DNA of 64,000 bases from Anaerolineae bacterium (GTDB taxonomy: Bacteria > Chloroflexota > Anaerolineae > SpSt-600), in NCBI GenBank assembly GCA_042408195.1, contig JBHOQL010000107.1:31976-95975 (forward strand), read 5' to 3'. Below, in pieces: positions 2,368 to 33,606 of this stretch. Both the position numbers and the translations under genes were made by a program. Positions within the stretch are counted from its first letter, which is position 1. Every line of letters begins with the position of its first letter. Under the pieces are notes generated by a model. That model did no database searches. It saw only the letters and a program-made list of their open reading frames with translations, and was not told where the DNA came from.

Positions 2368-2733
2368 ATGGAAGAATTGATCCTCGAGAACTTGGAAGAG
2401 GGTAAACTTCCCTGCGAGAGAGCTTTTGCCATAGCCCGAAAGCTCAGGGTAAAACCTTTAGCAGTAGGGCAAAAAGCGGATGAAATGGGCATAAAGATAA
2501 GCCGGTGCCAGCTTGGCTTGTTCGGTTACGCGGGTAAAAAGCTTATCGCTCCCATGGCCGAAATCCCTCCCAAGCTAGAAGAAGAGATAAAACGCCGGAG
2601 TAAAGAAGGAAGATTGACATGCGCGGGGGCGTGGGCTATAGCGCGTAAGCTCAACCGGAGCAAGCTTGAAGTTTCAAGCGCTGCCGAAACTCTTGATATC
2701 CACATAATTCAATGCCAACTCGGATGCTTCTAA
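2368..2733 (+). CDS. small protein built from two homologous ~45-aa repeats, each carrying two Cys (C-ERAFAIARKL…KISRCQLGLF and C-AGAWAIARKL…IIQCQLGCF)
   Basis: The internal duplication is evident from the translated ORF. Four to five conserved Cys suggest metal or cluster binding. It is tightly packed between the TP-rich gene and the MoaD-like gene. Confidence 0.45.
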   Translation: MEELILENLEEGKLPCERAFAIARKLRVKPLAVGQKADEMGIKISRCQLGLFGYAGKKLIAPMAEIPPKLEEEIKRRSKEGRLTCAGAWAIARKLNRSKLEVSSAAETLDIHIIQCQLGCF

Positions 2734-2744
2734 AGGAGGTACTT

Positions 2745-3140
2745 ATGCGAGTGGAAGTTTGGCTCTATGGTCCTATAGCGAAATATGGAGGAGGCGAACA
2801 CTACGCCAAAGTGGAATTGGACTTGCCCGAGGGTGCCACTCTGAAAGAAGCGCTGGAAAAACTTGGCATCCCGCTGGAAGAGCGAGGTATAACGTTTATA
2901 AACAGCCAGCTTTCAGCCATGCCAGGCTTTTACCCCGATATGGATGTGCAACTTAAGGAAGGGGACAGAGTCGGAATATTTCATCACAAAAGCATGTGGC
3001 CTTTCCAGTATCGCTTTGGAGCCAAAATGCACCCAGCTTTTGAAGAGGGCTTAAAGAAAGGGGAAGTCGGCTATCTGCGCCATTCCTACCGCCAAATCGA
3101 ACAAACCAATCCTGAAACCAGTAAGGATGAGCAAACTTGA
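2745..3140 (+). CDS. MoaD/ThiS-like beta-grasp sulfur-carrier-like protein lacking the C-terminal Gly-Gly, with a ~50-aa C-terminal extension
   Basis: A perfect RBS aaaggaggt lies 4 nt upstream of ATG 2745, making the 2712 start less likely. MRVEVWLYGPIAKYGGGEHYAKVELDLPEGATLKEALEKL…LKEGDRVGIF matches the MoaD/ThiS pattern (LPEGATv…L…GDeVaIipPvsGG), but it ends …VGIFHHKSMW… with no GG. Confidence 0.5.
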   Translation: MRVEVWLYGPIAKYGGGEHYAKVELDLPEGATLKEALEKLGIPLEERGITFINSQLSAMPGFYPDMDVQLKEGDRVGIFHHKSMWPFQYRFGAKMHPAFEEGLKKGEVGYLRHSYRQIEQTNPETSKDEQT

Positions 3141-3659
3141 GGGTACATAGGATCGAGTCCAATGCTGGGGGAGTGAAGATATCTCCCCCAAAGAGATAAG
3201 AGGAGGGGGTTAAAGGACAAATTCCTGCCATTGCCCGCGGGCGGGACTCTAAACCACAGCGAGCTCGAGGCCTACGGGGGTTAGAAAGATTAAGGCACCG
3301 ATGGGCGCAAACCCTTTGCCAGGGGTTTTCTTAAGAGAGTCCAAGCTGTTGACTTCAGCCATCTGCTTACGAGAGGAGCCCTCCGAGGCAACCCCAAAGC
3401 TAATGGAGGCAGACAAAATCGGGGGAGCAAGGGACAAAGCCCTTGCGGGGGAACTTAAGATGTCTCCTCAAGAAGGCAAAAGAGGGGGTATAGATCCTGG
3501 CTGTCACCTACGATGGGGATCAGTAACCGAAGCGGACCCGAAGCCAATGAGGATAGGCAGAATCTAACGAGGGTGGGTCCTCAGCCTGTCAAAGCCGTGG
3601 ACAGGATGTGAACCCCACTGAAGTAGGCAGAATCGAACACAGGCAGACGAAAGAGAAAA
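3141..3659 (+). promoter_or_regulatory. 520-nt GC-rich, highly structured non-coding leader between the MoaD-like gene and moaA; candidate Moco/Wco riboswitch region
   Basis: No convincing ORF; the listed ORFs at 3249-3437 (-), 3301-3567 (+) and 3589-3777 (-) are short, overlap each other and have no RBS. Contents: many perfect hairpins (e.g. GCAAGGG-ACAAAG-CCCUUGC at ~3425-3445, CCUGUC…GACAGG at ~3586-3608); an imperfect direct repeat, AGGCAGAAUCUAAC at 3556-3569 and AGGCAGAAUCGAAC at 3625-3638 (13/14); and a CUCCGAGGC element reminiscent of Moco RNA motifs. Its position immediately 5' of moaA (ATG 3660) is where Moco riboswitches occur. Confidence 0.3.
3215..3284. repeat. copy 1 of a conserved two-block structured motif (GGrCAAAyTCCTGCCmTTGCCCGCG..GGGAC + variable hairpin + ACGGG(GG)TTAG)
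   Basis: Block A runs 3215-3247 and block B 3274-3284. They are separated by the short palindromic hairpin GCGAGCUCGAGGC. A second copy sits at 60508-60574. Confidence 0.4.
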
Positions 3660-10492: not shown

Positions 10493-10972
10493 ATGCTGGA
10501 AAAAGAAGTGGGCAAGCTCCTGAGGCAGCTTAGGTTGACCCTCGCCGTAGCTGAATCCTGCACTGGTGGCCTCCTGGCTCACCGCATAACCAACGTCCCT
10601 GGAAGCTCTTATTACTTCATCGGCGGAGTTGTGGCCTACGCAAACCAGGTAAAAAGTTCCCTGCTCAAGGTAGGCGAAGAAACTCTGAACACCAAAGGGG
10701 CCGTAAGTGAGGAGACAGCCCTCCAAATGGCCAGAGGAGTGCGGGAACTCCTGGGGACCGATATCGGCATCGGGATAACAGGGATTGCGGGACCGGGAGG
10801 TGGAACCCCTTCTAAACCTGTCGGACTTGTGTATGTGGCCCTTTCCGCCCCCGACTATGAAGAGTGCCGCCAGTTTAAATGGGAAGGCCATCGGATTCAG
10901 AACAAGAGACTCTCAACAGAAGCTGCTCTGGAAATGCTCTTACAATACCTGAGACAACGGAGCGGGGATTGA
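10493..10972 (+). CDS. pncC: CinA C-terminal domain protein / nicotinamide-nucleotide amidohydrolase PncC
   Basis: [40 protein letters not shown] is the conserved CinA_C signature; 159 aa. Confidence 0.8.
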
Positions 10973-12735
10973 TAATCAAAGTTGAACCTTCTAAAGATGC
11001 CACCCTGTTGGAAATCACCCGCACTAAAGGCATTGCCCTGATAGCGCCATGCGGTGGACGGGGCAAGTGCGGCCGTTGTATAGTCCGAATCGTTGAAGGT
11101 GAGGTCTCCCCACCTACTCACGCTGATCAACGATTTCTCTCCTTAGTACAACTCGCTCGTGGATACCGACTGGCTTGTCAGGCTAGGCCTCTTTCCCTTT
11201 GTCACATTTACATACCCCCCGAGTCCTTATCTTTCTCCCAGCGAATCCAGCTCGAAGGCCAAGAAGTTCCGGCAAAGCCCGAACCTCCTGTCCGGGCGTA
11301 TCATATAACCCTTTCCCCGCCTTCCTTACAGGACCTTCGCTCCGATGCTGAGAGGATTGTCCAGGCCCTCGAAAGCCTTTACGGGATAAAGGTTTCTCTG
11401 GATTTCTCTTTCCTCCGCGAGCTCCCTGAAAAGCTCCGGGGCCAGAACTGGCAAGGGAAAGTTGTAGTCCGCGGGGACGAGGTCATTTCCCTCCTCCCTC
11501 CGGAAGCTTCCCTTCTGGGCTTGGCCATAGACCTGGGAACCACCAAAATCGCCTTTTACCTTGTAGACCTTGAAAGTGGCCGGACCCTATCAGTGCGGGG
11601 TATTGTGAACCCTCAGAGCTCATACGGCGAAGACATTATCTCCCGGATAACCTATGCTCTGCAAAAACCGGAGGGGGCGACCGAGCTTCAGAAGATTGTT
11701 ATAGGGAGTATAAATGAGGTGACAAAAGAGATGTGCACCGAGATAGGGGCAGACCCCTCCCAGGTGGTTGAATCGGTAGTGGTGGGGAACACCGCCATGC
11801 ACCACTTGCTGCTTGGGTTGCCAGTCCGCCAACTCGGATACGCTCCTTACGTTCCGGCCGTCCAGAGCGCCTTAGAGGTAAAGGCGCGGGAACTGGGCCT
11901 GAACTTTGCTCCCGGGGCTGTGGTTTATTTCCCGCCCCTCATCGCTGGATTTGTCGGAAGTGACCACGTGGCAGCCCTCCTGGCCACGGGTTTTAGCGAG
12001 GTAGAAGGTCCAGCTCTGCTCTTGGACATCGGCACTAATACCGAAATATGCCTGGCCCACGGGGGCAGATTGATAAGCCTTTCCTGTGCTTCCGGCCCTG
12101 CTTTTGAGGGAGCTCATATTTCTTGCGGGATGAAAGCCTCTCCGGGAGCCATTGAAAGTTTCTCCTTAGACGACGATGGGGTTAAATTCCAGACCATAGA
12201 TGACCTACCCCCGGTAGGGCTGTGTGGGTCAGGTATTCTGGACGTGGTGGCGCAACTCCGAAAAGCTGGAATAATAGATCCCAGTGGACGGATGGGTACG
12301 CATCCTCTGGTGCGTAGGGTGGATGGTCAGGCTGCCTTTGTAATTGTGGAGGAAACCCCTGAACAGCGCCCAATCCTCTTAACTCAGAAGGATGTAAGAG
12401 AAATCCAACTGGCCAAAGGGGCTATCCGTACGGGCATCGAAGTGCTCCTCAGGGAAACGAACTCTAACCCGGAAGATGTCCGAGAAGTAGTGCTAGCCGG
12501 AGCCTTTGGCACATACCTTAGAACCGAAAGCGCTGTGGAGATCGGGATGTTCCCCAGGATACCTCTGGAACGTTTCCGCCAGGTGGGGAACGCCGCCGGG
12601 ACTGGGGCGACGGCCATGCTCATTTCTACCTGGATGAGAGCTGAAGCTGAAAAGCTGGCCCGGAGAATTGAATACATTGAACTTGCCGCCGTCCCCGACT
12701 TTGCCCAGCTATTTGCCAAAGCAATGCTCCTTTGA
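10969..12735 (+). CDS. 2Fe-2S ferredoxin + ASKHA ATPase fusion (DUF4445 / RACo-like reductive activator of corrinoid proteins)
   Basis: A plant-type ferredoxin Cys cluster ([10 protein letters not shown]…C) precedes a long ASKHA-like domain ([19 protein letters not shown]…). The listed ATG at 10879 lies inside pncC; an in-frame TTG at 10969 overlapping the pncC stop (gaTTGa) is the more plausible start. Start uncertain. Confidence 0.65.
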
Positions 12736-12862
12736 CTGATTTTGACGGAAGCTGCATTCCGTGGTAGAGGTTTTCCAGAAAGCAAAACAAGTATTTCAGG
12801 CAGATGAAGCTCAGCATGCTCTCAAAACGATGGCGACAAAATCTGTATTAGCGAGGTGTAAG

Positions 12863-14671
12863 ATGGCATACGTTTACCATGGCCGATTGCTGCTAGTAGA
12901 CCTTAACGAGTGTTCCATTCAAGAAGTCCCGGTGGAGGAAAAAGACGTGAGGGAATTCCTCATGGGGAGTGGACTTGGCGCTGAGCTCTTCCGCCGGGAT
13001 GAAGCTTACCGAAAAGCTCCCCTTTCCCCTCAGAGCCCCCTTTATGTTATAAATGGTTTGCTCACAGGTTCTTTCATCCCGACTGCCTCCAAGACGAGTT
13101 TCTGTGCCCGCTCGCCCTTAACGAAAATCTGGTGCGAGGCGACAGTCGGGGGATATTTCGGTTCAATGCTCCGCTTTGCTGGTTACGATGGGATAATTTT
13201 CACGGGAAAAGCTGAAAAACCCCTTTACCTCTGGGTAACTGAAGGCAAGGCTGAGTTGCGCGATGCTTCACGCCTGTGGGGGCTGGATACCTACCGCACA
13301 GCAGAGGCCATCAGAGCCGAAACGCACCCCAAGGCCCAAGTGGCTGCCATTGGTCCTGCAGGGGAGAATCAGGTTTTCACTGCCTCCGTAATGATCGGCG
13401 GCCTCGATGGGAGGGCTGCGGGGAGAGGTGGCATGGGGGCAGTGATGGGATCCAAAAATCTCAAGGCCATAGCTGCTTTCGGGACCGCGCGCCTCCGTTA
13501 CTACAACGAGCAGGGCCTCAAGGAAGAGATCCGGCGAGTTAATCCCAGAATAAAGGAGAACACCGTCGCCCTTGGGATGTGGGGGACGGCAGGGGGTGTT
13601 CTCAGAGCTGAGGCCTACGGTGATTTCCCCCTGAAGAACTGGCGTGAAGGGAGCTGGCCCGACGGAGCCGCAAAAATCTCCGGTCAACGCATTCGGGAGA
13701 CTATCTTCGTAAGGGATTACCGCTGCTTTGCTTGCCCCATCGCCTGCGGGAAAGACGTGAAACTCAAAAGAGGCGACCAAGAGGTCATAGTATCGGGACC
13801 AGAATACGAAACGGTGGCCGGGTTTGGGGGAATGTGTCTCATAGACAACCTTGAGGCCATAGCTGAGGCTAACGATCTATGCAATCGCCTGGGCCTTGAT
13901 ACTATTTCCGTATCGGCAACCATAGCTTTTGCTATAGAAGCCTTTGAAAGGGGACTCATCACCGAAAAGGACACAGGAGGATACGCCCTTCAGTGGGGCG
14001 ACCCGGAAGGCGTTCTGAGCTTAATAGAGGACATAGCTTACAAGAGGGGACTTGGAGAACTTTTAGCCATGGGTGTAAAGCGAGCAGCTGAAGCCCTGGG
14101 CCCCCAAGCTCAAGAATTTGCTGTCCACGTCAAGGGCATGGAAGTGCCATACCATGACCCGAGGGCCTTCACAGGGATGGCCCTCAACTACGCCACTGCC
14201 AACCGCGGAGCCTGCCATCTGGAATCCCTCACGTACTGGGTAGGCTACGGAGTGAGAATAGATGAACTCTACATTCCTGAGGATTATCACCCTCATTCTT
14301 CCCGAGGCAAAGCCAGGATGGTGGTGGACTTTCAGAATTACATGACTCTCTACAACGCTCTGGGACTTTGCAAGTTTGCCGGAAGAGGCAATCTTCCGCC
14401 CAGTCTCCTGGCCCGTTGGCTCAACCTTGCGCTGGGGTGGGAGGTTACGGGAGAAGAACTGATGGCCACGGGCGAGCGCCTCTTCAATCTCAAAAGGGCT
14501 TTAAATGTGGAAATGGGGATCACCCGGTCCGATGATACCCTACCCTCTCGCTTGCTGAAAGAGGCCAGGCCTTCCGGCGGAGCGGCCGGAGTACTCCCTG
14601 AACTTGAACTCATGCTGGAGGAATACTACCAGATCCGAAAGTGGGATAAAAGAGGAAGACCTTTTATTTAA
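12863..14671 (+). CDS. aor: aldehyde:ferredoxin oxidoreductase (tungsten/molybdopterin enzyme, AOR family)
   Basis: AOR-family N-domain (MAYVYHGRLLLVDLNECSIQEVPV…) and C-domain are present, about 600 aa. ATG 12863 is preceded by gaggtg; the listed 12761 start lacks an RBS. Co-localised with moaA and xdhC. Confidence 0.85.
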   Translation: MAYVYHGRLLLVDLNECSIQEVPVEEKDVREFLMGSGLGAELFRRDEAYRKAPLSPQSPLYVINGLLTGSFIPTASKTSFCARSPLTKIWCEATVGGYFGSMLRFAGYDGIIFTGKAEKPLYLWVTEGKAELRDASRLWGLDTYRTAEAIRAETHPKAQVAAIGPAGENQVFTASVMIGGLDGRAAGRGGMGAVMGSKNLKAIAAFGTARLRYYNEQGLKEEIRRVNPRIKENTVALGMWGTAGGVLRAEAYGDFPLKNWREGSWPDGAAKISGQRIRETIFVRDYRCFACPIACGKDVKLKRGDQEVIVSGPEYETVAGFGGMCLIDNLEAIAEANDLCNRLGLDTISVSATIAFAIEAFERGLITEKDTGGYALQWGDPEGVLSLIEDIAYKRGLGELLAMGVKRAAEALGPQAQEFAVHVKGMEVPYHDPRAFTGMALNYATANRGACHLESLTYWVGYGVRIDELYIPEDYHPHSSRGKARMVVDFQNYMTLYNALGLCKFAGRGNLPPSLLARWLNLALGWEVTGEELMATGERLFNLKRALNVEMGITRSDDTLPSRLLKEARPSGGAAGVLPELELMLEEYYQIRKWDKRGRPFI

Positions 14672-21992: not shown

Positions 21993-24278
21993 TTAGAACA
22001 ACGGCGGCATGCTGAGAGCTGGATGGCCTTTCTCCTCAAGGTAGGCTAAGAGCTCTTCCACTGTGGTGGCAACCCGCTCATCAGCAATCTTGTCCAGAAG
22101 GTCGGGGTCACCTTCTCGCTCGCAGACCTTCTGAAGCTCCTCTTTCATAGTCTCCTTAAGGAAGCTGGACATCCACACAATGCGCTTGAAGCCGCCATCG
22201 GCCCGGATGAATTTCCTGGAGAGGAGGAAATACTTACCAATACCCATCACGCCCGGGGTTTGGAGGCCACCACCAGCCGTTCCTGCCAGGGTTGAGAAGG
22301 TCATTCCAGCTGGGGTCATGGACGGATCCTCGCGGCTGACCACCATAAAGCCGTTGGCTTCAGGGATTATCATCATTATGCACTCAAAGCAGCCGCAGGC
22401 GGTCATCGGGTTCTCCATAATGGAATACATGGCTACCTGGTCGACGGCCCCGCGGGAAGCCTGCTTTACGAACCGGTTAACTCCTTCAAAGTAACCTTTC
22501 CATTCGTCCAAGACCTTGCCTTTGGGAACCGGCTGGTTGGGGCCTGTGGGGTTGATCTGGTGAGAAGCCTTGCAGTCCAACCAGTTGTAGGCACCACACA
22601 GCCCTAAGCGCTCAGGGCTGATGATGCAGACGTGGTTGGGAGCAAAGCTCTGGCAGAGGGTGCAGGAGTAGAATTCCTCCACGCTTTCGTCCGTCATCTC
22701 TTCCAGGCGGCGGTTGCGGAAGTTATAAGCTTCACGTGCTTTCTGGAGCCACTCTTGCAGGAGACTCTTGTCAGTGATTATCTTGACCTGAACCTTGTCC
22801 ACAATAGCGCCAAAATCGGAGTGGAAACGAGCGTGGAGGATCTTACCAAAATGCTCGAGCCTAAAGCCAGCCTGGGAAGCTTTCTTGGAAACTCGGATCC
22901 AGGCTATATCCCTCTGACCTATGTGCTGGATGCCGGAGGCACCGTTAATAAAGTAGTGGATCTGGCGCTCCAAGACGGGCTCAAAGTCCTTCTGCATCTT
23001 GCGCCCGGCGACTTCTACTATGATGCCCATGTCCATAGCTCCGCCTTCCGGCACCTCGTCAAAATCTGGTCCTATGACTTCAATCTTGCCATCCTCCACT
23101 TCCTCCATAGGCTTCATGTAGAGGTACTCGAAGCAACGGGAGTCCTTGCCACCAAACTCCACCCTCATGTCCTGGCGGCGGACTCTCTCCCCCTCAAAAG
23201 CGGAACCGTAAGGAACCGGAATGTCAATGCGGGTTATCTTTACCTTGACTCCGCGCACCTCAATGCACTTTTCTACAAGCCTCTTGACCCTCTCTATATC
23301 GTCTTTGCCCTCAATATCGTCAAATGGCATAGAGATAACGTGTTCATACTGGGTTACGCCGGTGGGGAGGATCTGCGGAATAATGGTATCGGCAATGACT
23401 GGGAAACCATAGTTAATGGCACCGGCGGCGGTTGCGTACTTGAGGTCATCCACTTCACCGAGAGCCAGGACGAAAGCAAAAACCCTGTACTTGTTGTAGA
23501 GAAGGATTTCCTTAGCCTGGCCGGGCTTGAGGCCGCCGAAGCTCAGGGCAGAGCGGGTAGCAAAACCAAGGGCGTAAATAGCCGAGATGGTATCAGTTCC
23601 GAAGGGGACGATATAAGTATCGTAGCCCATCTCCACCCCTTCTTCCATGAGCTGATGGATTATAGAGCGCCCGTTCACATTGCCGGCAAGGAGGACAAGG
23701 ATGTTGCGCTGCTGGAGCTCACGGACAAGTTGGACTGCTACCTCGTTGGATTTGGCACAGCCGACAATGGCCGCAAAGCCCGGCATTCGTCCGTCTACCA
23801 ACTGAATGCCCCACGCTCGCATCTGAGAGTCATCAATGGGGCCATTGAGGCGGGTTCCTTCCTCGCCTTTCATAAAATCAGGGGCGGTGAAGCTGGCAGA
23901 AGGAACGTAATAACCTCCCCAGGTTATCTTTTCGGGCTCAAGGCCGTAGGCGAAGCGGATGCCTTCAATGGCCTCTTCGGCCAGTAGGGTAGCGATTCCG
24001 CAGTCCAAGGCCTCCCCCAGATAAGGAAGCCAGTGCTTCTCTTCGGGAATAGGGTGCAATAGATTCTTGGCTATGTTCAGAACCTGTTCCAGGTCCTTAA
24101 GTTTTGTGACCGGGATGCCGGTAAGGCCGTAAATGACTGGAAGGTAATATGCAGTGTTAGGGAAAGCCACCTTGGCCTCCGGGCCAAGCTCTTGAAGGGC
24201 CTTTTGGAGCATCTTCTCGGCTTCGTTGACAATGTAGTTGGCGCCTCTTATCGCACGGGTGGCAATATATCTGGACAT
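21993..24278 (-). CDS. acsB: acetyl-CoA synthase (CODH/ACS complex, ACS catalytic subunit AcsB)
   Basis: About 760 aa with the characteristic N-terminal region (…FPNTAYYLPVIYGLTG…), matching the ACS alpha-subunit family. Adjacent to cooS/acsA. Confidence 0.85.
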   Translation of the reverse strand: MSRYIATRAIRGANYIVNEAEKMLQKALQELGPEAKVAFPNTAYYLPVIYGLTGIPVTKLKDLEQVLNIAKNLLHPIPEEKHWLPYLGEALDCGIATLLAEEAIEGIRFAYGLEPEKITWGGYYVPSASFTAPDFMKGEEGTRLNGPIDDSQMRAWGIQLVDGRMPGFAAIVGCAKSNEVAVQLVRELQQRNILVLLAGNVNGRSIIHQLMEEGVEMGYDTYIVPFGTDTISAIYALGFATRSALSFGGLKPGQAKEILLYNKYRVFAFVLALGEVDDLKYATAAGAINYGFPVIADTIIPQILPTGVTQYEHVISMPFDDIEGKDDIERVKRLVEKCIEVRGVKVKITRIDIPVPYGSAFEGERVRRQDMRVEFGGKDSRCFEYLYMKPMEEVEDGKIEVIGPDFDEVPEGGAMDMGIIVEVAGRKMQKDFEPVLERQIHYFINGASGIQHIGQRDIAWIRVSKKASQAGFRLEHFGKILHARFHSDFGAIVDKVQVKIITDKSLLQEWLQKAREAYNFRNRRLEEMTDESVEEFYSCTLCQSFAPNHVCIISPERLGLCGAYNWLDCKASHQINPTGPNQPVPKGKVLDEWKGYFEGVNRFVKQASRGAVDQVAMYSIMENPMTACGCFECIMMIIPEANGFMVVSREDPSMTPAGMTFSTLAGTAGGGLQTPGVMGIGKYFLLSRKFIRADGGFKRIVWMSSFLKETMKEELQKVCEREGDPDLLDKIADERVATTVEELLAYLEEKGHPALSMPPLF

Positions 24279-24508
24279 AGCCTCTACCTCCTTCAGAAGG
24301 TTCTCTCAAAGAAATTCTCGGCCAGATGCACACACTGGCACGCAGCCTCTAGAACTTTACACGCATATTCTTCTTCATTGTGAGGCCTGGAAACAAGCCC
24401 GTAGCTTGCTCCCCTTTTCAGTAGCCAATTGCGCACTGAACACGCTCCTTGCCTACCCCCTGTGCCGGAAACTAGTTTAAGCCCACTCCAGGTAACGCCA
24501 AGCTAATT

Positions 24509-25024
24509 TCAACCGGAAGTCAGCATCTTCTCCGAAAAGCATCCCTTGAACCCTTCCCGGGTCAGGGACCAGCCGGGTTTGGATGGTAGTCCTTCCCACC
24601 ACCAATAAAGGATACCCAGCGAATCTCTTCGGCGGACAAGCTTGGCCTCTTTTATGAACTGTCGTACCTCTTTAAGACGAGTTTCCAGAAAGCCCTCTAG
24701 GTCAGAAATTATAACAGTATGTTGGGAAAGGTCAAGATGCAGAGATGTTACATCGGAATTGAATTCTTCAACTGTGCGGGCCAGGATAGAAATCCTACCC
24801 TGGCCCGCCCTGTCCACTATCGGTTTATAGCCTACCTTTCCCCGCTCAATGGGATTGAGCGGCAATTCTCTGGTTATAAGGAGCAGGTCAATATCGCTTT
24901 CTTCCCTCGCTTTTCCCTTAGCCCAGGAACCGAAGAACGCTAATGCCATTGGGTTGTCTTCCAACCCTTCTTTCATCCTCTGGGTAAGCTCTACAGCGAG
25001 CTCATCGAAATTGACCTGCTCCAT
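24509..25024 (-). CDS. Pol-beta-superfamily nucleotidyltransferase domain protein
   Basis: The hG[GS]x9-13Dh[DE]h motif is present (FFGSWAKGKAREESDIDLLLI). The start lies only 10 nt after the acsA stop, so it is probably co-transcribed. Confidence 0.6.
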   Translation of the reverse strand: MEQVNFDELAVELTQRMKEGLEDNPMALAFFGSWAKGKAREESDIDLLLITRELPLNPIERGKVGYKPIVDRAGQGRISILARTVEEFNSDVTSLHLDLSQHTVIISDLEGFLETRLKEVRQFIKEAKLVRRRDSLGILYWWWEGLPSKPGWSLTREGFKGCFSEKMLTSG

Positions 25025-25034
25025 GCTTCCGCCT

Positions 25035-27023
25035 TTATGCCTCCGCTAAGCTTTTGGCGCTGTAGAGGCTCACTTCCCTGCCCTCTTCCAGGGCCTTCAG
25101 GAACTGCAGCATCACACGGTCGCCGCTCTTCCCAAACTTGGCGGGATTGTATTCCTCCAGGCCAAGGGCAGCCCGCTTCTTGTCAATATGCTCAAGGGCT
25201 CGACGAACGATCTCTTCGGGGTCCTCTACGAACTCAAGTTTGCCCCCTACCGTCTTTTCCCAGCCCTCGCTCATTATGCGCTGGACTTCCGCACTGGCTT
25301 TAATGGGTGAGCCGACGCCAAACATGACGTATACACCCGAAGCAGCGAAGTAGGTCCCAATAGCGAGAGCCTTTTCGCTCATCCACTCAGGAGCAATGCC
25401 CACTGCCGGGAGATCGGCTATGTCCTCACCCAGGCCACCCTCAGTGGCCATTTGACTAGCTACAGTGAGGATGCGAGAGTTATCCACACAGGCACCCATG
25501 TGCAGCACAGGCGGAATACCTACAGCTTCACAGATCTCTCGCAAGCCAGGACCAACTTCTTCCATCGTTTCCGGGAGCAACAGCCCATATTTAGCGGAGG
25601 CAATGGCTCCGCACCCAGTTTGAACCACAAGCACATCGTTTTTGATAAGCTCTTTAACAATGTATTCGTGGGCGGCGTCCTGAGTGCAGTGTGGGTTATT
25701 GCAACCCACTACTCCAGCCACGCCCCGGATGCGTCCGTGGATAATGGCATCGTTGAGGGGGCGGAAGGAACCACGGTAGTAACCACCGAGGGCGTAAGTT
25801 ATGTATTCGTGCGAGAAACCAGCCACCACCTCGGAAACTTGCTTAGGTATGCGAACTTTGCCCCGGTTGGGGAAGTTATCAATGGCCATCCTAACAATTT
25901 GCTTGGCGATTTCCAGGGCGCGGCTCTCATCGAATTCTACATGAAGGGCGCCCTTGACTTTTACCTTGGGGGAAGTGGTGATAAGCTTGGTATGGAACCG
26001 TTCGGCCAGTGGGGCGAGGGCCTCCATTATGCATTGAATATCCACAGCCATCAAATCAACGGCACCAGTTAGAATAGCCAACTCTTGGTGCAAGAAGTTA
26101 CCAACAGTCGGAATACCCTGGCGCATAAGGGTTTCATTGGCAGTGCAGCAGATTCCGGCCAGATTTATCCCTTTGGCCCCCTTGGACCTGGCATACTCAA
26201 TAAGTTCGGGGTCATTGACTGCTAGGACCATCATTTCGGAGAAGAGAGGTTCATGGCCATGGACTACGATGTTAACTTCGTCCTCCTTAAGAGCTCCCAG
26301 GTTAGCCCTGGTCTTGAGAGGAGCTGGGGAACCGAAGAGGATATCGGTGATATCAGTGGACAACATGGAACCACCCCACCCATCAGCCAGGGCGCAACGC
26401 ATGGCTCCCAAAAGCAAGTGCTCGGGGTCCTGGTCGTTTCCCATGACGGTTCGGTGCATTAGTTCCACCACTTCCCGGTCAATACCCCGGGGAGCTATCT
26501 CGTATTTTCGCCATATCTCCTGACGGCGCAGAGGAGCTCGTTTAAGATAGGTAAGCTCTCCCTTTTGCTGGCCAAATTCAGCCAGAACTTTTAGGGCTAA
26601 ATCTCTGGCTATTTCCCTTTCATTCCGATCCTTGTAGGGCACGCCAAAAATGTCGGCTATCTCCAACAGCTTCTGCAAGTCCCTTATGCGGTAATCAGGG
26701 GCCTCACCTTCAGCCGCAGCCAAAAGGGTAAGGGCCATATCGCGTCCATGGTCACTGTGAGCAGCCGAGCCAGCAGCGATGGCTCTTGCCAGGTTGCGGG
26801 CTACTACTGTATCAAGGGTCGCACCGCAAATCCCGCGGGTGATCTTGCCCACCAGACGGCAAGGACCCATAAAGCAATGCTTACAGCACGCCCCGTCCCG
26901 CCCTATTGGGCAGGGTTTAATTTCTTCTACTCTGGAGAATACTGTTTCATAGCCTTCCTCTTCCGCAATCTTCAGCATTTCCAGAGCAGCTGGGTCTATG
27001 CTCTTATATCCGTTCCCTCCCAT
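25035..27023 (-). CDS. acsA: Ni,Fe carbon-monoxide dehydrogenase catalytic subunit (CooS/AcsA)
   Basis: CooS/hybrid-cluster-family Cys motifs (CPIGRDGACCKHCFMGPC…CGATLDTVVARNLA) and overall 660-aa CODH layout. Confidence 0.9.
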   Translation of the reverse strand: MGGNGYKSIDPAALEMLKIAEEEGYETVFSRVEEIKPCPIGRDGACCKHCFMGPCRLVGKITRGICGATLDTVVARNLARAIAAGSAAHSDHGRDMALTLLAAAEGEAPDYRIRDLQKLLEIADIFGVPYKDRNEREIARDLALKVLAEFGQQKGELTYLKRAPLRRQEIWRKYEIAPRGIDREVVELMHRTVMGNDQDPEHLLLGAMRCALADGWGGSMLSTDITDILFGSPAPLKTRANLGALKEDEVNIVVHGHEPLFSEMMVLAVNDPELIEYARSKGAKGINLAGICCTANETLMRQGIPTVGNFLHQELAILTGAVDLMAVDIQCIMEALAPLAERFHTKLITTSPKVKVKGALHVEFDESRALEIAKQIVRMAIDNFPNRGKVRIPKQVSEVVAGFSHEYITYALGGYYRGSFRPLNDAIIHGRIRGVAGVVGCNNPHCTQDAAHEYIVKELIKNDVLVVQTGCGAIASAKYGLLLPETMEEVGPGLREICEAVGIPPVLHMGACVDNSRILTVASQMATEGGLGEDIADLPAVGIAPEWMSEKALAIGTYFAASGVYVMFGVGSPIKASAEVQRIMSEGWEKTVGGKLEFVEDPEEIVRRALEHIDKKRAALGLEEYNPAKFGKSGDRVMLQFLKALEEGREVSLYSAKSLAEA

Positions 27024-27120
27024 AGTCTTTTCCTCCTGAAGAAATTTTAATACCTACGGGAGGCCCTTACTTCCCTTCAGGGAAGCCGCTTTCTCCACTC
27101 CCGTGGTCCAGAATAGCTAA

Positions 27121-27453
27121 TTAATACTTCCTGAAGTCACCTGCCATCTCAATGTCGCGTCGGTCAGTCCAGGTAATGCGCTTTATCACTTTGAACCAGG
27201 GCGAATTGTCATCAATATGGCGCGGAGGGCGTGGGATTTCAGGCTCTTTTCCAGGTTCATATCCGGCTTCCTTGAGCTTCGATTCTAGAACTGTGGGGTC
27301 GAGCTTAGAACTGTCGTAGGAAACGACAACCTTTTTCAACATAGAGCTGGCATATACATCCTTAACCCCGTCCAGGCTGAGGAGCACTTCTCTAACCTTT
27401 TTTACATGATGGTCCGCATACATTGAGGGCAGGTCAATTGTTACCTTTTCCAT
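27121..27453 (-). CDS. HMA (heavy-metal-associated) fold-like small protein with the CxxC metal site replaced by ADHH
   Basis: VTIDLPSMYADHHVKKVREVLLSLDGVKDVYASSMLKKVVVSYDSSKLDPTVLESKLKEAGYEP aligns with the CopZ/HMA pattern (V.GM.C.HCV..VE..L..L.GV.........V.V.D......I...I...GY), but the loop reads M-Y-A-D-H-H. No Cys in the protein. Has its own RBS (gggaggtaaagg) and a -10-like TATAAT. Lies between fhs and cooS. Confidence 0.5.
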   Translation of the reverse strand: MEKVTIDLPSMYADHHVKKVREVLLSLDGVKDVYASSMLKKVVVSYDSSKLDPTVLESKLKEAGYEPGKEPEIPRPPRHIDDNSPWFKVIKRITWTDRRDIEMAGDFRKY

Positions 27454-27551
27454 AGCCTTTACCTCCCTGGAATAAATTATACCATTTTAATCCGTTTTAT
27501 GCAAGTTCAATCAGGGGGAGGCAGGGGTGCCCCCACCTCCCCCGTCCTTCT

Positions 27552-29333
27552 TTAGAACAGGCCTTTTATCTTCCCGGTCTCCAAGTCAATGTCCACATCC
27601 ATGAAGGCCGGGCGGCTGGGGAGACCGGGCATGGTGCGCATCTCGCCGCAGAGTGGATAGAGGAAACCAGCTCCCACCGAGGCCCTTATGTCACGGATGG
27701 GAAGCCGGAATCCCTTCGGTCGGCCTCTCAGGTTGGGGTCGTGGCTCAGGGAGTACTGGGTCTTGGCCATGCAGATGGGGAATTTATCGTAGCCAAGCTT
27801 GGTATAGAGGGCGATCTTGCGCTCGGCTTCCTGGCTGTAATCCACTCCATCGGCTCCGTAGACCTTAGTGGCGATGATTTCGATCTTGTCCTTGATGGGT
27901 ATATCCAGCGGGTAGAGGAAACGGAATTGGGAAGGTTTGTTGGCAGCAGCAATTACGGCTTCGGCGAGTTCGACTCCACCCTCGCCGCCCTTGGCCCAGA
28001 CTTCGGAGATGCAAGCGGCTTCAGCACCAAACTCTAGGGCCGCCTTCTTTATTAGCTCCAACTCAGCTTGGGTGTCAGTGGGGAAGCGGTTTATGGCCAC
28101 GACTGCGGGGACGCCGAAGAGTTTCACGATGTCAAGAGTGGCCTCCAGGTTGCTCAGCCCTTTCTCCACAAGCTCCAGGTTCTCCTCAGTGTAAGCGGGA
28201 TCGAGAGGTCTTCCAGGCACAACCCTGGGACCACCGCCGTGCATCTTCAGAGCCCTGACGCTGACCACCACCACTACGCAATTGGGGATAAGGCCAGAAA
28301 CGCGGCACTTGATGTTGAAGAACTTCTCCATGCCGCAGTCAGCGCCGAAGCCTGACTCGGTCACCACGTAGCCATCCTCGCCCACCAGTTTTAGGGCTAT
28401 GTAATCGGCCACGATGGAAGAGTTGCCATGGGCGATGTTGGCGAAGGGCCCGGTGTGGACAAAGGCCGCATTGCCTTGCAGGGTTTGCATTAGGTTGGGC
28501 ATCAGAGCATCCTTCAGGATTACCGTCATAGCTCCGGCGACCCCAAGATCTTCAGCCGTGACGGGGTTTCCCTTTTTATCCATGCCGATGACGATCCTGC
28601 CCAGGCGCTCTCTTAGGTCCTTGAGGCTCGTGGCGAGGGCAAGGATGGCCATGATCTCTGAAGCCACAGCGATGTCAAAGCTGGCCTCCCTGGGGCGACC
28701 ATCCTCCTCCGTGCCCAGGCCGATAATTATTTTGCGCAGAGCACGGTCGTTGACGTCAACTACTCGTGGCCAAGTGATGGTATAGGGGTCAATGTTCAGA
28801 CGCCTGAGGCCTATCTTGGCCAGCTGTTCATCGGAGAGGCGGTCTTCGTGCATTATACGGGCGTCTATGGCCGCCGCCAGGAGGTTATGGGCTATGGATA
28901 CAGCGTGGATATCACCAGTGAGGTGAAGGTTGAAATCCTCCATCGGAACAACCTGAGAATAGCCACCACCCGCCGCCCCTCCTTTAATGCTGAAGGTAGG
29001 CCCCATAGAAGGCTGGCGGATGCAAGTGAAAACTTTCTTGCCCAGATAATAGAGGGCTTGGCTAAGGCCTATAGTAGTTACGGTCTTGCCTTCGCCCAAG
29101 GGCGTGGGGTTTATGGCGGTAACGTCAATATACTTCCCGTTGGGCTTATCCTTAAAACGCTCAAGCACCTCTAAGTGGACCTTGGCCTTGTATTTACCGT
29201 ACAGTTCGATGTCATCCTCGGTGAGCCCGTACTCTTCGGCGACCTCTATAATTGGGCGCAGCTTAGCGGACTGGGAAATCACAATATCAGGGGGTACTGG
29301 CTCAACGCGTTTGACTAAGAGTTCCCGTGCCAT
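27552..29333 (-). CDS. fhs: formate--tetrahydrofolate ligase (formyl-THF synthetase)
   Basis: Full-length FTHFS family match: N-terminal [38 protein letters not shown]-loop region [15 protein letters not shown]; 593 aa. Confidence 0.9.
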
Positions 29334-29705
29334 GTTTACCTCCTCCTTGGGATTTTAAGTTTAACCGTAGCTTATAAAGCCCTAACGGGTATGGTCTTAC
29401 AAATGGATCTTGAACAGCTCCCACTCCGCCCTTTGTTACGCTTGCCAGCCTCCTTTTCTCCTTGCGCATAAGAGCCGATGTATCCGATGTACAGCGCTTT
29501 TCTCTTAATGTCCAGGAGCTAAAAGCCTGGTTGATTTCTTCAGCATTTGGCTATCTGAGCACGGATAAACTCAAGGATCGCTGGGTATAGTTTACAGTTG
29601 CTTGCTGAGCAGCAAAGCAAAGCCCATTTATGCCAACCAACTTCTCTGGCTTTTTCCGCAAGGCCGAGCTCTCGCTCTACCCGTCTGAACCAGTCAGAGG
29701 CCCAG

Positions 29706-30290
29706 TTAGGCATCGGACTTGCTCCGCCAGATCAATTTCCACGCCGAAGGTAAAGCAAGTGTTGCTATTACAAGTTTCACCAGATCACCCGGGATGAAGG
29801 GGTAAAGTCCCGCCACCAACACTCTTTCCATTCCTATAAACCGGGCCAGCCATGGAAGCCCGAAGACATAAATGATGATGTTCCCGATAAGCATTGCCAA
29901 AAAGTTGCTCCAGAACTTCCTGTCCCAATGGCGCTCGGCCAACCAGCCAGTTACGAAAGCAGCGGCCACAAAGCCGAACAGGTAACCTCCGGTAGGCCCG
30001 AAGAGGCGGTAAAGGTTGCTTGTCCCTCCAGCGAAAACTGGAAGGCCAGCAGCACCTTCGAGCAAATAGAGGAGCAAGGATAAGGCTCCCCGTTTGCTGC
30101 CTAGCAAGGCCCCTACCATAAGTACTGCCAAGGTCTGCCCCGTAATGGGAACCGGGGTGAAGGGAAGGGGTATAGCAATGCGAGCCGCCAGAGCTACAAA
30201 AGCACTACCTCCAAGGATAAGAGCTAAGTCGTAAAGAATCGCTATCTGCTTTCTGGCAATAGGAGGCCGCAGAGCTTCGGCTATGGTCAC
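29706..30290 (-). CDS. bioY: BioY-family biotin ECF transporter S component
   Basis: BioY signature (IPLPFTPVPITGQTLAVLMVGALLGSKRGAL…GLPVFAGG), 194 aa, about 6 TM. Confidence 0.8.
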   Translation of the reverse strand: MTIAEALRPPIARKQIAILYDLALILGGSAFVALAARIAIPLPFTPVPITGQTLAVLMVGALLGSKRGALSLLLYLLEGAAGLPVFAGGTSNLYRLFGPTGGYLFGFVAAAFVTGWLAERHWDRKFWSNFLAMLIGNIIIYVFGLPWLARFIGMERVLVAGLYPFIPGDLVKLVIATLALPSAWKLIWRSKSDA

Positions 30291-30301
30291 TGGAGTGCCT
30301 C

Positions 30302-31180
30302 CTACTTCATTTGTCTCTTTGCTGCTTCCAGCACGTTCTTGAGCAACATGGCATTAGTCATTGGGCCGGTTCCCCCAGGGACAGGGGTTATTGCTCCGGC
30401 CACTTCCTTCACTGACTCAAAGTCAACATCACCCACCATTTTACCATTAATAAAGTTAACGCCAAAATCCACCACTACAGCACCAGGCTTGACCATGTCG
30501 GCGGTAACGAGATTAGCTCGACCGACGGCTACGCATAGGATATCGGCTTCCCGGCAAATGGCTCCCAGATCCGGCGTGCGTGAATGGCATATAGTTACCG
30601 TGGCATCTTCTCTGAGGAGGAGCAAAGCCATCGGTTTGCCTACAATATTGGACCGGCCCACCACTACTGCCCTCTTGCCGCTTATCGTTATGCCATAGCG
30701 CTTGAGGAGTTCGAGACCACCAAGAGGGGTAGCGGGGACAAAGTAATCCATTACTCCAGGAGGACGCCCCACAGGAGCCACTTGGGCCAGCCTTCCAGCA
30801 TTAACTGGGTGCACCCCATCTACATCCTTGGCAGGGTCAAGGCTTTCTTTTATGAGAGCTTCGTCCCAGCCTTTGGGGAAAGGCTCCTGCAGGATTATGC
30901 CGTGGACAGTGGGATCGGCACTCAGTTCTTTTACCAGTTTTATCATCTCTTCCTGAGAAGCCGTCTCCGGGAGGACGTAGAGCTTAAAACCGAGGCCATT
31001 GCTCTCAAAGGTCTTTTTTATAGCATTGGCATAGCTGACAGAAGCAGGATCTTCTCCAGCCCTAACTACGGCTATGGTTGGGATTACGCCATAATTATCC
31101 TTGAAAGAAGCCACCTCTGCTGCTACTTCGGCCTGAATATCCTTAGCTATAGAGCGGCCGTCCAAGATCTGGGCAGGCAT
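30302..31180 (-). CDS. folD: bifunctional methylene-THF dehydrogenase / methenyl-THF cyclohydrolase
   Basis: FolD family: MPAQILDGRSIAKDIQAEV…; NAD(P)-binding VVVGRSNIVGKPMALLLL; 292 aa. Confidence 0.9.
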   Translation of the reverse strand: MPAQILDGRSIAKDIQAEVAAEVASFKDNYGVIPTIAVVRAGEDPASVSYANAIKKTFESNGLGFKLYVLPETASQEEMIKLVKELSADPTVHGIILQEPFPKGWDEALIKESLDPAKDVDGVHPVNAGRLAQVAPVGRPPGVMDYFVPATPLGGLELLKRYGITISGKRAVVVGRSNIVGKPMALLLLREDATVTICHSRTPDLGAICREADILCVAVGRANLVTADMVKPGAVVVDFGVNFINGKMVGDVDFESVKEVAGAITPVPGGTGPMTNAMLLKNVLEAAKRQMK

Positions 31181-31191
31181 TTAGCACCTCC

Positions 31192-31848
31192 TTAAAGTTT
31201 GCTCTTGACAAATTCATATACTTCTTCTTTCAATTGCGATTTGCCTTCCAACAGTTTATCGAGCCGGGTCTGGGCTTCTTTTTTGAAGTTCTCGTCTTTG
31301 AGCCAGCCCAAGTTTATGAGCACGTTGAGAGCAGCGCTACGCAGGCCTGCCTCTGCCATCACCACGGCTACGCCCGCATCGCTTACAGCATTTACATTGC
31401 CCTTTTCAGCCACCGGCCGGCAGAGGTCTATGACCTTGACACAAGCTTCCGCCACCCGCAGAGGGACTTCGGTGGCCTCTTTGAGAGCTTTATCCAATGC
31501 TTCTTCTCGGATCGCCCTCTGCTCCTCAGTGTCTCTCGGCATCTTCATTGCTTCCGATACTTTGGTGTAAGCAGCTATGTCCCCCTCCAGAAGATCTAAA
31601 AGCTCCCGACGCAGGGCTTCCGATTGCTCCAGGATTGCTTTTATCTCTCCTTCTACATCAGCATACTTCTTTTTGCCGATGGTGAGATTGCAGACCATGC
31701 TTACTAAGGCAGCCCCCATCGCCCCGGCAAGAGCAGCAACGCTTCCACCACCGGGAGCAGGGGCTGAGCTAGCAAGCTCATCCATAAATTGGGTTATGGA
31801 TTTTTCGGCCAGCATGGTAACCTCCGTTTTCCTTAAATAGACGGGCAC
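31192..31848 (-). CDS. fchA: formiminotransferase-cyclodeaminase C-domain family protein (methenyl-THF cyclohydrolase FchA-like)
   Basis: FTCD_C signature (APAPGGGSVAALAGAMGAALVSMV…). The true start may be the internal MLAEKS at about 31815. Confidence 0.75.
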   Translation of the reverse strand: MPVYLRKTEVTMLAEKSITQFMDELASSAPAPGGGSVAALAGAMGAALVSMVCNLTIGKKKYADVEGEIKAILEQSEALRRELLDLLEGDIAAYTKVSEAMKMPRDTEEQRAIREEALDKALKEATEVPLRVAEACVKVIDLCRPVAEKGNVNAVSDAGVAVVMAEAGLRSAALNVLINLGWLKDENFKKEAQTRLDKLLEGKSQLKEEVYEFVKSKL

Positions 31849-32039
31849 CCCTTAGAGGCCTGCAGCTTCGAAACCAGGCCCCAGAGCGTTGAATTCTTCC
31901 CCTCATGTAGACATGCGGCTCCAGTCCTGGAACACTGACAATTTTTCAGCAAGGAAAAAGGGCCCTTTCCCTTTTCGCTCCTTCATAAATCCACACGCTG
32001 GTGACTGGCTTAACCTCTTCATTTCCTTGCTACGCTATA

Positions 32040-33422
32040 TCAGGCTGCCACTACCTTGAGGACTGGACTCACATCTACAAAGTGTTTCTGGAAACCAAGC
32101 TCAACTGGCTTTACTCCGAAGGCCAAGCCCAAAAGCTGAGTTATGTAAATCACTGGCATGCGGTAATCAAGCCCCAGCAGGTCCTGACGGGTGTCCAGAT
32201 TTATCTGACACAGCGGGCAAGCTACCACGATAGCGTTAGCCCCTACATTGTGGGCATCTTCAAGGATGCGACGGATCATGTCCAACACCGCTTCAGTCTT
32301 GCTCAGAGCAATGGAACCACCACAGCAATAGGTCTTGTAAGACCAATCCAAGCTCCGAGCTCCTGTGATTTCCACTAGCCTGTCCATTATCATTGGGTAT
32401 TCATAATGAGGCGCTTGCACAATTTTAGGCGGCCGCGTGATAAGGCAGCCGTAGTAGTTTACAACTTTGAGGCCGCTTAGGGGATGGGTAACTTTCTGGG
32501 CTATTTTGTCCATCCCAACATTTTCAAGGGCTTCAAGTAGATGCAGTATCTGTATGCCTCCCTTGTATTTGTACCCCGTTTGCTCTTCAACCGCTTTGGC
32601 CAGCTCTTTGTTCCGCTGAACATCGTAAACGGCGGCCTTGAAGCGGGAATAGCAGGCAGAGCAAGGCATCATAACCTTGTTGAGGCCTGCTTTTTCAAAT
32701 ATGGACATGTTCTGCATGGGCAAAGCAGCCGCAAGGACGTGATCGGTAGAGTGAGCGGGGGAAGTACCACAACAGACCCAGCCCTCGGGCTCGTAAAGGG
32801 ACACACCCAAATGCTGGAACACAGCCCTTACGGACATGTCATATTCGGACGAGGTGGAATGGAGAGAACAACCAGGGTAATATCCCAATACACCTTCTGG
32901 TGCTTTGCCCTCAGGCTTGCCGGAACGAGCGGGAAGAAGCCGGAGCTTGCCTTTGAGGAACATCTTTATACCCATCGGGACATCCCGCCGCAGGACGCCT
33001 CTGAAATCCAAACTCCTGCTAAGGAGCATGCGGAGATACATCTCCACCATCATCCCCAGCTCATACATCCTGCCGAAAATACGTATATTGTTCACCCCCG
33101 CCTTGGCAAAGGCGTAAACCTCCGGCAGCGGCGAAGGAATGCCCCGCTTCTGAGCCTCCACTTTGACTACATCCATTATGCGGGCGATGTCCAAGTCCTG
33201 AGGGCAGCGAGTGCTGCAGGTGTAACAAGTGGCGCAGAGCCATGCCGTGCGGGAACGCAGAACTACATCATCGCGCCCAAACTGAAGGTATCGCATGAGC
33301 TGGTGGGGGGTAAGGTCAAACTTATCGGCCAGAGGACAGCCATTTGTGCACTTCTTGCATTGGTAGCAAAGGTAAACGTTAGTGCCGAGTTCCTTGTTGA
33401 TCAGTCGTGCCAGTTCTCCCAT
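32040..33422 (-). CDS. heterodisulfide-reductase-like Fe-S oxidoreductase, fused HdrC-like (2x[4Fe-4S]) + HdrB-like (two CCG domains)
   Basis: Two ferredoxin motifs (CYQCKKCTNGCP, CATCYTCSTRCP) are followed by two CCG domains (…WVCCGTSPAHS…, …YCCGGSIALS…). Confidence 0.75.
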   Translation of the reverse strand: MGELARLINKELGTNVYLCYQCKKCTNGCPLADKFDLTPHQLMRYLQFGRDDVVLRSRTAWLCATCYTCSTRCPQDLDIARIMDVVKVEAQKRGIPSPLPEVYAFAKAGVNNIRIFGRMYELGMMVEMYLRMLLSRSLDFRGVLRRDVPMGIKMFLKGKLRLLPARSGKPEGKAPEGVLGYYPGCSLHSTSSEYDMSVRAVFQHLGVSLYEPEGWVCCGTSPAHSTDHVLAAALPMQNMSIFEKAGLNKVMMPCSACYSRFKAAVYDVQRNKELAKAVEEQTGYKYKGGIQILHLLEALENVGMDKIAQKVTHPLSGLKVVNYYGCLITRPPKIVQAPHYEYPMIMDRLVEITGARSLDWSYKTYCCGGSIALSKTEAVLDMIRRILEDAHNVGANAIVVACPLCQINLDTRQDLLGLDYRMPVIYITQLLGLAFGVKPVELGFQKHFVDVSPVLKVVAA

Positions 33423-33606
33423 TGTAGAGCCTCCTTATGGGATGTTGAACGGGGAATGGCGAAATGGTTATTTGTCCCCCGACTTTTTAACTTGGTAAAA
33501 CGGCAACGCCAACCCTCAGTGGTCACCTCTTTATCTCTGTAAGAGGCTATTTATCCCATTCCTCGTAACTTATATTCACCATCCGCCATGCCTCGTCCGC
33601 TATTCC

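Follow-up and report, generated by a model that had tools for sequence, protein, structure and literature searches.

The Gly-Gly tail of MoaD is the part of the protein that is adenylated and thiocarboxylated. Canonical MoaD genes linked to genes for aldehyde:ferredoxin oxidoreductases (AORs) were proposed in 2006 to serve tungsten-cofactor synthesis (Iyer, Burroughs & Aravind, PMC1779556), and archaeal surveys agree on an AOR-linked MoaD (PMC2948915). In T. kodakarensis, the gene order is AOR, a MoaD-type ubiquitin-like protein (TK1065) and a radical SAM protein, and according to the 2024 genetic study of this organism, it is not known how the cofactor is sent to one enzyme or another (PMC11323500). 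The AOR operons of Aromatoleum aromaticum carry two MoaD-like genes, aorD and aorE (PMC6365974). When aorDE were co-expressed, recombinant AOR had a specific activity of 16 U/mg in place of 4.5, and 85 U/mg was reached when tungstate was added (PMC9295118, PMC6365974).

We analyzed a 64-kb stretch of DNA (the window) that encodes a small relative of these MoaD proteins, referred to here as protein X. Its gene is an intact open reading frame of 131 codons on the + strand (positions 2745 to 3140, with the ATG at 2745 and a TGA at 3138-3140). A ribosome-binding site read from the sequence, AAGGAGG (2733-2739, + strand), lies 5 nt before the ATG and overlaps the TAA stop of the upstream gene, p121. 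An alternative upstream ATG at 2712 was ruled out as the start because homologues begin at the same Met as that of 2745 (M-R-V-E-V-W-L-Y-G). A chance reading frame or a read-through artefact was excluded by at least 1610 homologous protein clusters (in a collection of 5.8 billion proteins), by invariant columns in the tail and by synonymous differences. Among the seven closest loci, codons for residues 81-116 carry many synonymous differences, and this segment is thus translated and constrained. The gene is real and conserved, and its product is a MoaD/ThiS-type beta-grasp that extends past the Gly-Gly end of carriers. The first-pass annotation had described a MoaD/ThiS-like beta-grasp without a C-terminal Gly-Gly, and the reading frame, homologues, fold model and alignments all bear this description out.

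The MoaD/ThiS-type beta-grasp comprises residues 1-80 (2745 to 2984, + strand) and includes the strand-1 sequence W6-L7-Y8-G9, which is invariant in alignments of 22 and 92 members of the protein X family. The same annotation had matched the N-terminal 80 or so residues to the MoaD/ThiS pattern and left that match to be judged by structure prediction. An AlphaFold2 model built on 92 homologues gave a beta-grasp over residues 1-80 (pLDDT 92-98); beside this model RnfH scored 8.1 and ubiquitin about 7. The nearest relatives of protein X in sequence and structure are MoaD-type. Over 80 residues it shares 34% identity (E 5e-12) with the MoaD half of a fusion encoded in one of the cassettes described below, and this alignment ends exactly at GDxVGxF. 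Individual Pfam and NCBIfam models match the beta-grasp below their cutoffs, with all of these matches falling within residues 18-80: protein X scored 19.4 bits for ThiS/PF02597 (cutoff 22.5), 20.6 bits for Ub-RnfH PF03658 (cutoff 23.7), 16.5 bits for Ub-Mut7C PF14451 (cutoff 23) and 14 bits for the NCBIfam model NF002490 (cutoff 75). PF02597 was matched by 67 of 92 family members at E<=0.01, the best at 3.4e-06. The C-terminal 50 residues had no match in Pfam or NCBIfam. Likewise, a profile search of PDB sequences returned no match to the extension; its sole hit was a weak one to MoaD 1vjk over the beta-grasp, and stronger PDB matches to MoaD were traced to the N-terminal MoaD of fused forms within the query alignment.

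Protein X departs from the carriers directly after G73-D74-R75-V76-G77-I78-F79. The MoaDs of the cassettes end at this point with FPPIGGG and a stop, whereas protein X continues F79-HHKSMWPFQYR (the sequence after F79 being HHKSMWPFQYRFGA...). In place of the Gly-Gly tail it has a conserved extension, residues 81-116 (2985 to 3092, + strand), which is defined by conserved columns, a motif census and synonymous changes. The extension holds S83-M84-W85-P86-F87-Q88-Y89-R90-x-G92-A93, a short helix and H113-x-Y115. W85, P86, Q88, Y89 and R90 do not vary across 92 sequences, and S83, M84, F87, G92, A93 and H113 are conserved at 90% or more in the alignments of 22 and 92 members. The exact string SMWPFQYRFGA was found in 88 of 191 motif-bearing sequences, the remaining variants differing mostly at residues 91-93 alone, and distant relatives retain recognizable versions of the tail (SAWPLHYRYG, HMWPYQYRDG, YVWPYHYRGG). 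The AlphaFold2 model places two short helices at moderate pLDDT (64-79) in residues 81-110 and predicts disorder for residues 112-131. C-termini are heterogeneous across the family (191 sequences).

The last 15 residues of protein X are of a different origin from the rest of the extension. In the closest loci, relatives stop 0-5 codons past residue 116, after ...RHSY(R/G). Nucleotide colinearity with these loci runs from about 2304 to 3092 (codon 116) and is then found again from the moaA start at 3657-3660; the end at 3092 was read from four loci (L009, L007, L011 and L012). Residues 117-131 (QIEQTNPETSKDEQT; 3093 to 3140 with the stop codon, + strand), predicted to be disordered (pLDDT <50), are therefore specific to this genome. 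They belong to a lineage-specific segment of 567 bp (3093 to 3659) that has no counterpart in the syntenic loci and that contributes the private tail, the stop codon and a 520-bp spacer before moaA. This segment has no Rfam match, no further copy in the window or in the retrieved loci and no terminator-like site on the + strand. The spacer (3141-3659) held no Moco or other riboswitch at Rfam gathering thresholds, which were matched in the window by just a tRNA located elsewhere, and at E<=1 it gave one chance-level 14-bit match. The 50-residue extension noted in the first-pass annotation thus exists but is composite, with 36 conserved residues (81-116) followed by 15 private ones (117-131).

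No Gly-Gly follows the beta-grasp in protein X, and none is conserved downstream of it anywhere in the family. A GG dipeptide does occur somewhere downstream of W85 in 50 of 191 members, with a consensus position near 108-109. Protein X is free of cysteine, and Cys is found within the domain in just 25 of 191 members; the conserved cysteines that a beta-grasp [2Fe-2S] ferredoxin or a persulfide carrier requires were not found. Because protein X has neither a C-terminal nor a conserved internal Gly-Gly, and no cysteine in this genome, it is probably no sulfur carrier in its present form. We infer that in vivo it carries sulfur neither as a thiocarboxylate nor as a persulfide.

A carrier could nevertheless be hidden in a precursor, as the first-pass annotation had suggested, if the extension of a sulfur carrier or ubiquitin-like protein were cleaved (for example, after G92) to expose a reactive C-terminus. 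The conservation of G92 at 90% or more, the scattered GG dipeptides downstream of W85 and the MoaD-X fusions described below, in which an internal GGG lies in a flexible linker (pLDDT <50) and implies that a processing activity may exist there, are the points in its favor. However, the Gly-Gly itself is not conserved and is missing after the beta-grasp of the window protein, and the residue ahead of G92 is bulky (F, H or Y). The adenylation channel of an E1 is narrow and does not accommodate a bulky residue before the glycine. Conservation of H113 and Y115 extends beyond every candidate cut site, and the C-termini of the family differ from one another. The check that had been proposed for this idea, a search for an E1-like (MoeB/ThiF) or JAMM/MPN gene, returned none among the window proteins scanned or the annotated neighborhoods of relatives. 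We consider a processed precursor highly improbable.

The family of protein X is small. An exhaustive HMMER scan of 1.84 billion cluster representatives gave 238 hits at E<=1e-3, of which 80 reached E<=1e-10 and 15 reached E<=1e-30, and the longest protein among the 150 best hits listed has 206 aa; the family is therefore compact as well, and no fusion to a large enzyme was seen. Weak hits correspond to ordinary MoaD/ThiS proteins of 75-90 aa. Relatives are encoded in 360 stretches of contigs from a set with one genome per species. The best 80 of these 360 loci, on which most of the counts below are based, come nearly all from metagenome-assembled genomes of Chloroflexota (Anaerolineae, Thermoflexia, Ardenticatenales and Caldilineae), with a few from Desulfobacterota. 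Source annotations call the relatives "MoaD/ThiS family protein" or "sulfur carrier protein ThiS".

True MoaD proteins are recurrent partners of the family. In 26 of the 120 best clusters, a MoaD ending in ...FPPIGGG is joined through a linker of about 5 residues to X, forming a fusion of about 205 aa, and the N-terminal halves of these fusions match solved MoaDs. A search for GG-ended reading frames in the 80 non-redundant species-level loci found a separate small GG-ended MoaD gene within 6 kb of X in 25 of them, mostly abutting it and on either side. That a true MoaD is repeatedly fused to X or abuts it, in either order, suggests that the two proteins are functional partners. The fusion was modeled as two independent domains (pTM 0.54) with a linker at pLDDT <50 and a tail at pLDDT 68-76, which is no gain over the single protein. 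Docking of the tail onto MoaD was considered and is not supported by this model, in which there is no fixed packing between the domains and the confidence of the tail is unchanged. By its sequence, protein X is a paralogue, in degenerate form, of the MoaD that is linked to AOR; the 64-kb window has a single copy of X.

The gene order p121, X, moaA and xdhC is common to the window and its seven closest relatives (63-78% identity). The gene p121 (2368 to 2733, + strand) encodes a 121-aa protein with two Cys-containing repeats that end in CQLG(L/C)F and has no match in Pfam or NCBIfam. It occupies position -1 of X in the closest relatives, and another lineage, which does not have X, carries a homologue 4 bp upstream of moaA-moaC. 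Downstream of X are moaA (3660 to 4643, + strand), which encodes a GTP 3',8-cyclase (TIGR02666, 396 bits against a cutoff of 284), and a gene for an XdhC-family cofactor-insertion chaperone (4658 to 5470, + strand) with XdhC_CoxI and XdhC_C domains, whose product scored 273.6 bits for NF045664 XdhC_rel_AOR, under the cutoff of 350. The X-moaA order of the window was also found in loci L007 and L009-L012. The location next to moaA noted in the first-pass annotation holds in that the two genes belong to the same string, although in this genome the 520-bp spacer separates them.

The sole AOR gene in the window (12761 to 14671, + strand; AFOR_N and AFOR_C domains) is 9.6 kb from X. It belongs to another subfamily and is just 27-31% identical to the AORs that adjoin X elsewhere. 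No genes for canonical MoaD, MoaE, MoeB or the TIGR04317 maturase were found in the 64-kb window, which is also without a small GG-ended beta-grasp; a tblastn search of the window with a TIGR04317 query matched moaA only. Elsewhere in the window are genes of the Wood-Ljungdahl pathway, of ATP synthase and of housekeeping functions.

Other X loci have an AOR much closer at hand. Among the 42 loci with at least 2.5 kb on both sides of X, 20 have an AOR gene (AFOR_N/AFOR_C) within 2.5 kb on the same strand, and an AOR lies within 10 kb of X in 33 of 80 loci. These X-adjacent AORs form a tight clade with 57-94% mutual identity (median 68%). A recurrent cassette consists of the AOR, a radical SAM/SPASM protein (TIGR04317), a canonical MoaD with a GGG end and X, with MoaD and X either separate or fused. 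The radical SAM protein scored 420-439 bits (cutoff 380) for TIGR04317, "tungsten cofactor oxidoreductase radical SAM maturase"; a literature search found no publication naming this maturase. Where the flanks are adequate, about one-half of the loci are without a nearby AOR, and at roughly one-third of the informative loci a recognizable cofactor gene is missing from the neighborhood. Two kinds of apparent neighbor were discarded: a 673-aa AOR::MoaD fusion in locus L048 was an artefact of a reading frame bridged by a masked run of N, and several recurrent neighbor clusters from naive ORF calling were antisense reading frames in high-GC DNA. The first-pass annotation had proposed relevance to cofactor sulfur transfer from the location next to moaA; homologues do co-occur with pterin-cofactor genes (AOR, canonical MoaD, TIGR04317, moaA and xdhC).

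In roughly one-half of the informative loci, X is the immediate same-strand neighbor of an AOR from one tight clade, which could also mean that X is a stable small subunit or partner that docks onto or stabilizes the mature enzyme of that clade and is not a maturation factor. Beta-grasp modules are commonly adaptors in complexes (PMC1949818), which is consistent with such a role. Against it, X sits with moaA and xdhC and not with an AOR in the window and its closest relatives, and the fusions are with MoaD and never with AOR, no protein among the 150 best hits listed being longer than the 206 aa given above. In addition, AOR purified from A. aromaticum was without the MoaD-like AorD and AorE (PMC6365974), although their likeness to the X family is one of analogy. 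A structural partner of AOR is therefore possible but unlikely.

The cassette also brings X next to an enzyme that might act on it. Peptides or proteins are the usual substrates of enzymes with a SPASM domain. If X were a substrate or obligate partner of the TIGR04317 maturase, the aromatic W-P-F-Q-Y-R might be modified, for example, by cross-linking. MoaD-X or X is immediately preceded by the TIGR04317 gene in 13 of 80 loci, as it is in further loci from metagenomes, and an invariant aromatic motif on a segment of lower model confidence would suit such a reaction. However, this gene is missing within 10 kb at most X loci, including 20 of the 33 that are linked to AOR, as well as from the 64-kb window, and X does not have a leader/core architecture. 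Furthermore, the AOR, MoaD and radical SAM set of T. kodakarensis was reported without an X-like protein (PMC11323500), so the maturase need not require X. On balance, a role as radical SAM substrate is rather improbable.

A third neighbor raises the question of whether X has anything to do with pterin cofactors at all. The mutS2 gene is immediately upstream of X in 15 of 80 loci, and the Pfam scores for Ub-Mut7C and Ub-RnfH are about equal to that for ThiS; X might thus be a MutS2-linked beta-grasp for nucleic-acid or repair functions, similar to TGS or Mut7-C-type Ub domains. We regard this as very unlikely, because the genes that are fused to X and that abut it encode MoaD and because locus L001 has the order mutS2, X and AOR, by which the mutS2 adjacency looks like lineage synteny.

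Taking the family as a whole, we favor, with moderate confidence, a reading in which protein X is a non-catalytic accessory or adaptor that works beside a true MoaD in making or delivering a W/Mo pterin cofactor for one AOR clade. The first-pass annotation had listed a non-thiocarboxylated beta-grasp adaptor as its other alternative, and the loss of Gly-Gly together with the pterin-cofactor gene context fits it best. Because X sits either in AOR/TIGR04317 cassettes or in moaA-xdhC operons, the job shared with MoaD would be the synthesis or insertion of the pterin cofactor, and a role in cofactor maturation for the window protein may be inferred on that basis. The MoaD beta-grasp body was kept and the flexible ...PP-x-GG tail was replaced by a fixed aromatic S-M-W-P-F-Q-Y-R-x-G-A, a short helix and H-x-Y. 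In this proposal, the beta-grasp would dock on a partner that recognizes MoaD-shaped modules, and the conserved aromatic tail would offer a rigid element for binding instead of a reactive end. Points against this reading are the X loci without a nearby AOR, the 15 of 80 that follow mutS2, the different subfamily of the AOR in the window, and the canonical MoaD, MoaE, MoeB and TIGR04317 genes that were not found in the 64-kb window; the support for a function comes from gene context. X would then act as an adaptor or escort in cofactor making or delivery for one clade of aldehyde:ferredoxin oxidoreductases.

A bolder version would make X, as a GG-less mimic of MoaD, a specificity factor of tungsten-enzyme biogenesis that tethers the true MoaD and the MPT synthesis machinery (or the radical SAM maturase) to one apo-AOR; as an alternative, its WPFQYR tail would itself be modified by the SPASM enzyme. 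This seems unlikely to us, and its two forms would have different consequences. With tethering, the bis-pterin cofactor would be sulfurated or assembled on its target AOR; with modification of the tail, WPFQYR would become a new protein-derived group.

Irrespective of these versions, the adaptor reading gives the family some practical interest. X may be a conserved MoaD partner without the carrier tail, and it is repeatedly fused to MoaD and found in the cassette of AOR, radical SAM protein and MoaD; these properties make it a testable candidate for a step that routes the W/Mo pterin cofactor to, or assembles it on, particular AOR enzymes. Our literature searches found no publication that treats a MoaD-like protein together with maturation, tungsten and aldehyde oxidoreductase. 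The annotation can also be corrected, as the labels "MoaD/ThiS family" and "sulfur carrier protein ThiS" stand on proteins without the residue pair that defines carrier chemistry. If X were merely a passive paralogue, the result would refine, to a modest extent, the picture of how diverse the ubiquitin-like proteins of prokaryotes are.

Several described systems resemble the X family in part. RnfH (PF03658) is related in fold, but scores are under the cutoffs and no Rnf genes were seen in X neighborhoods. The Mut7-C Ub domain (PF14451) precedes a Mut7-C/PIN RNase, whereas X stands alone and has no Mut7-C/PIN context. Processed ubiquitin-like or carrier precursors of the QbsE/CysO and MoaX types have an internal Gly-Gly and a JAMM/MPN peptidase; the X domain has no conserved internal Gly-Gly, and no JAB/MPN family was found among the window proteins scanned or in the annotated neighborhoods. 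M. tuberculosis MoaX is an example of a fusion of the MoaD-MoaE type. The family members of about 205 aa likewise carry a MoaD with an internal GG upstream of a partner, across a flexible linker, as do MoaD fusions of that type that need cleavage (PMC1779556); their partner, however, is a second, GG-less beta-grasp and not MoaE, and the window protein X is stand-alone. AorD and AorE of A. aromaticum offer an analogy, as two MoaD-like genes in one AOR operon whose products are putative W-cofactor maturation factors.

Also related in sequence are short GG-less beta-grasps (84-100 aa, ending in ...DMRMLYV or ...DMALLYRQYFPK) that are encoded in other AOR operons and match PF14451. Some of these are followed, within one fusion protein, by a MoaD whose C-terminal GG is free, and some lie beside MoaD::MoeA or MoeA genes. 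Their homology to the X family covers the beta-grasp (hhalign probability 99%, E 6.7e-18), and they share the LYG motif of strand 1. Their tails, in contrast, are shorter and read M-x-L-L-Y where X has M-W-P-F-Q-Y-R, and the profile alignment stops before the tail.

The closest match in context is the canonical AOR-linked MoaD. AOR adjacency together with cofactor genes, the trait of these MoaD clusters, is found in the X family as well, whereas the neighbors in the window are instead moaA and xdhC. The canonical protein ends in ...FPP(I/V)GGG and is a thiocarboxylate carrier; the X family has no Gly-Gly and a conserved aromatic extension of 36 residues. Our literature searches found no description of a GG-less, WPFQYR-tailed family, and X combines the fold and context of MoaD with the loss of the Gly-Gly that defines a carrier. 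It occurs alongside or fused to the canonical MoaD and does not replace it.

Directly upstream of X, the gene for the beta-grasp protein, lies a small gene on the forward strand (2368..2733) encoding a 121-residue protein, which we call p121. The RBS of X overlaps the p121 stop codon. The p121 protein is built of two repeats of about 45 residues, each containing a Cys and ending in C-Q-L-G-(L/C)-F. Searches of p121 against Pfam and NCBIfam returned zero matches, and all 253 of its homologues are unnamed. In a different lineage, the gene for a homologue with 45% identity precedes moaA-moaC by 4 bp, and p121 may therefore be a so far unrecognised MoaA-associated small protein.

On the other side of X, a 567-bp segment (3093..3659) supplies 15 codons of X. 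The closest syntenic loci have nothing equivalent to it; there, X and moaA are separated by 18-50 bp or by 400-690 bp of unrelated sequence. The segment matched no Rfam family, no repeat copy of it was found in the window or the retrieved loci, and no terminator-like site was found on its forward strand. Among the 80 best-matching species-level loci carrying relatives of X, mutS2 (MutS_V + Smr) is directly upstream of X in 15 (including L016-L026, L033, and L001:5522-8396), and in some loci AOR follows this pair. The adjacency of mutS2 and X is probably lineage synteny.

The AOR-family gene of the window shares only 27-31% identity with the AOR clade that neighbours the X family. Directly upstream of it is a gene for a reductive activator of corrinoid proteins of the RACo type, with Fer2 and RACo domains; the two genes span 10879..14671 on the forward strand. 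A Wood-Ljungdahl-type cluster occupies 21993..35800 on the reverse strand and encodes an ACS/CODH beta subunit and a Prismane/CODH-family protein, together with formate-THF ligase, FolD, an FTCD_C-domain protein, MTHFR and its C-terminal partner, and CCG/Fe-S and FlpD proteins. Its gene content suggests that this Chloroflexota genome belongs to an anaerobe, possibly an acetogen. The sole tRNA gene of the window (61717..61788, reverse strand) adjoins an HNH endonuclease gene (61135..61644, reverse strand).

In other genomes, AOR operons (L096:5754-9694 and L094:5729-6525) carry two or three distinct consecutive beta-grasp genes. The first type encodes proteins of 84-86 residues ending in MLYV or LLYV, the second a 97-residue protein lacking Gly-Gly, and the third a canonical MoaD::MoeA fusion, followed by a fusion of MoeA to a periplasmic-binding-like domain. 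Radical SAM/SPASM maturases of the TIGR04317 family are encoded next to X-family members (L005:6823-8010, L061:2308-3495, and others) and have about 46 additional N-terminal residues beyond the model, as in ...GRLVLPEDFLQRRHIPP.... By eye, this N-terminal stretch resembles an AbrB/SpoVT-type swapped hairpin.
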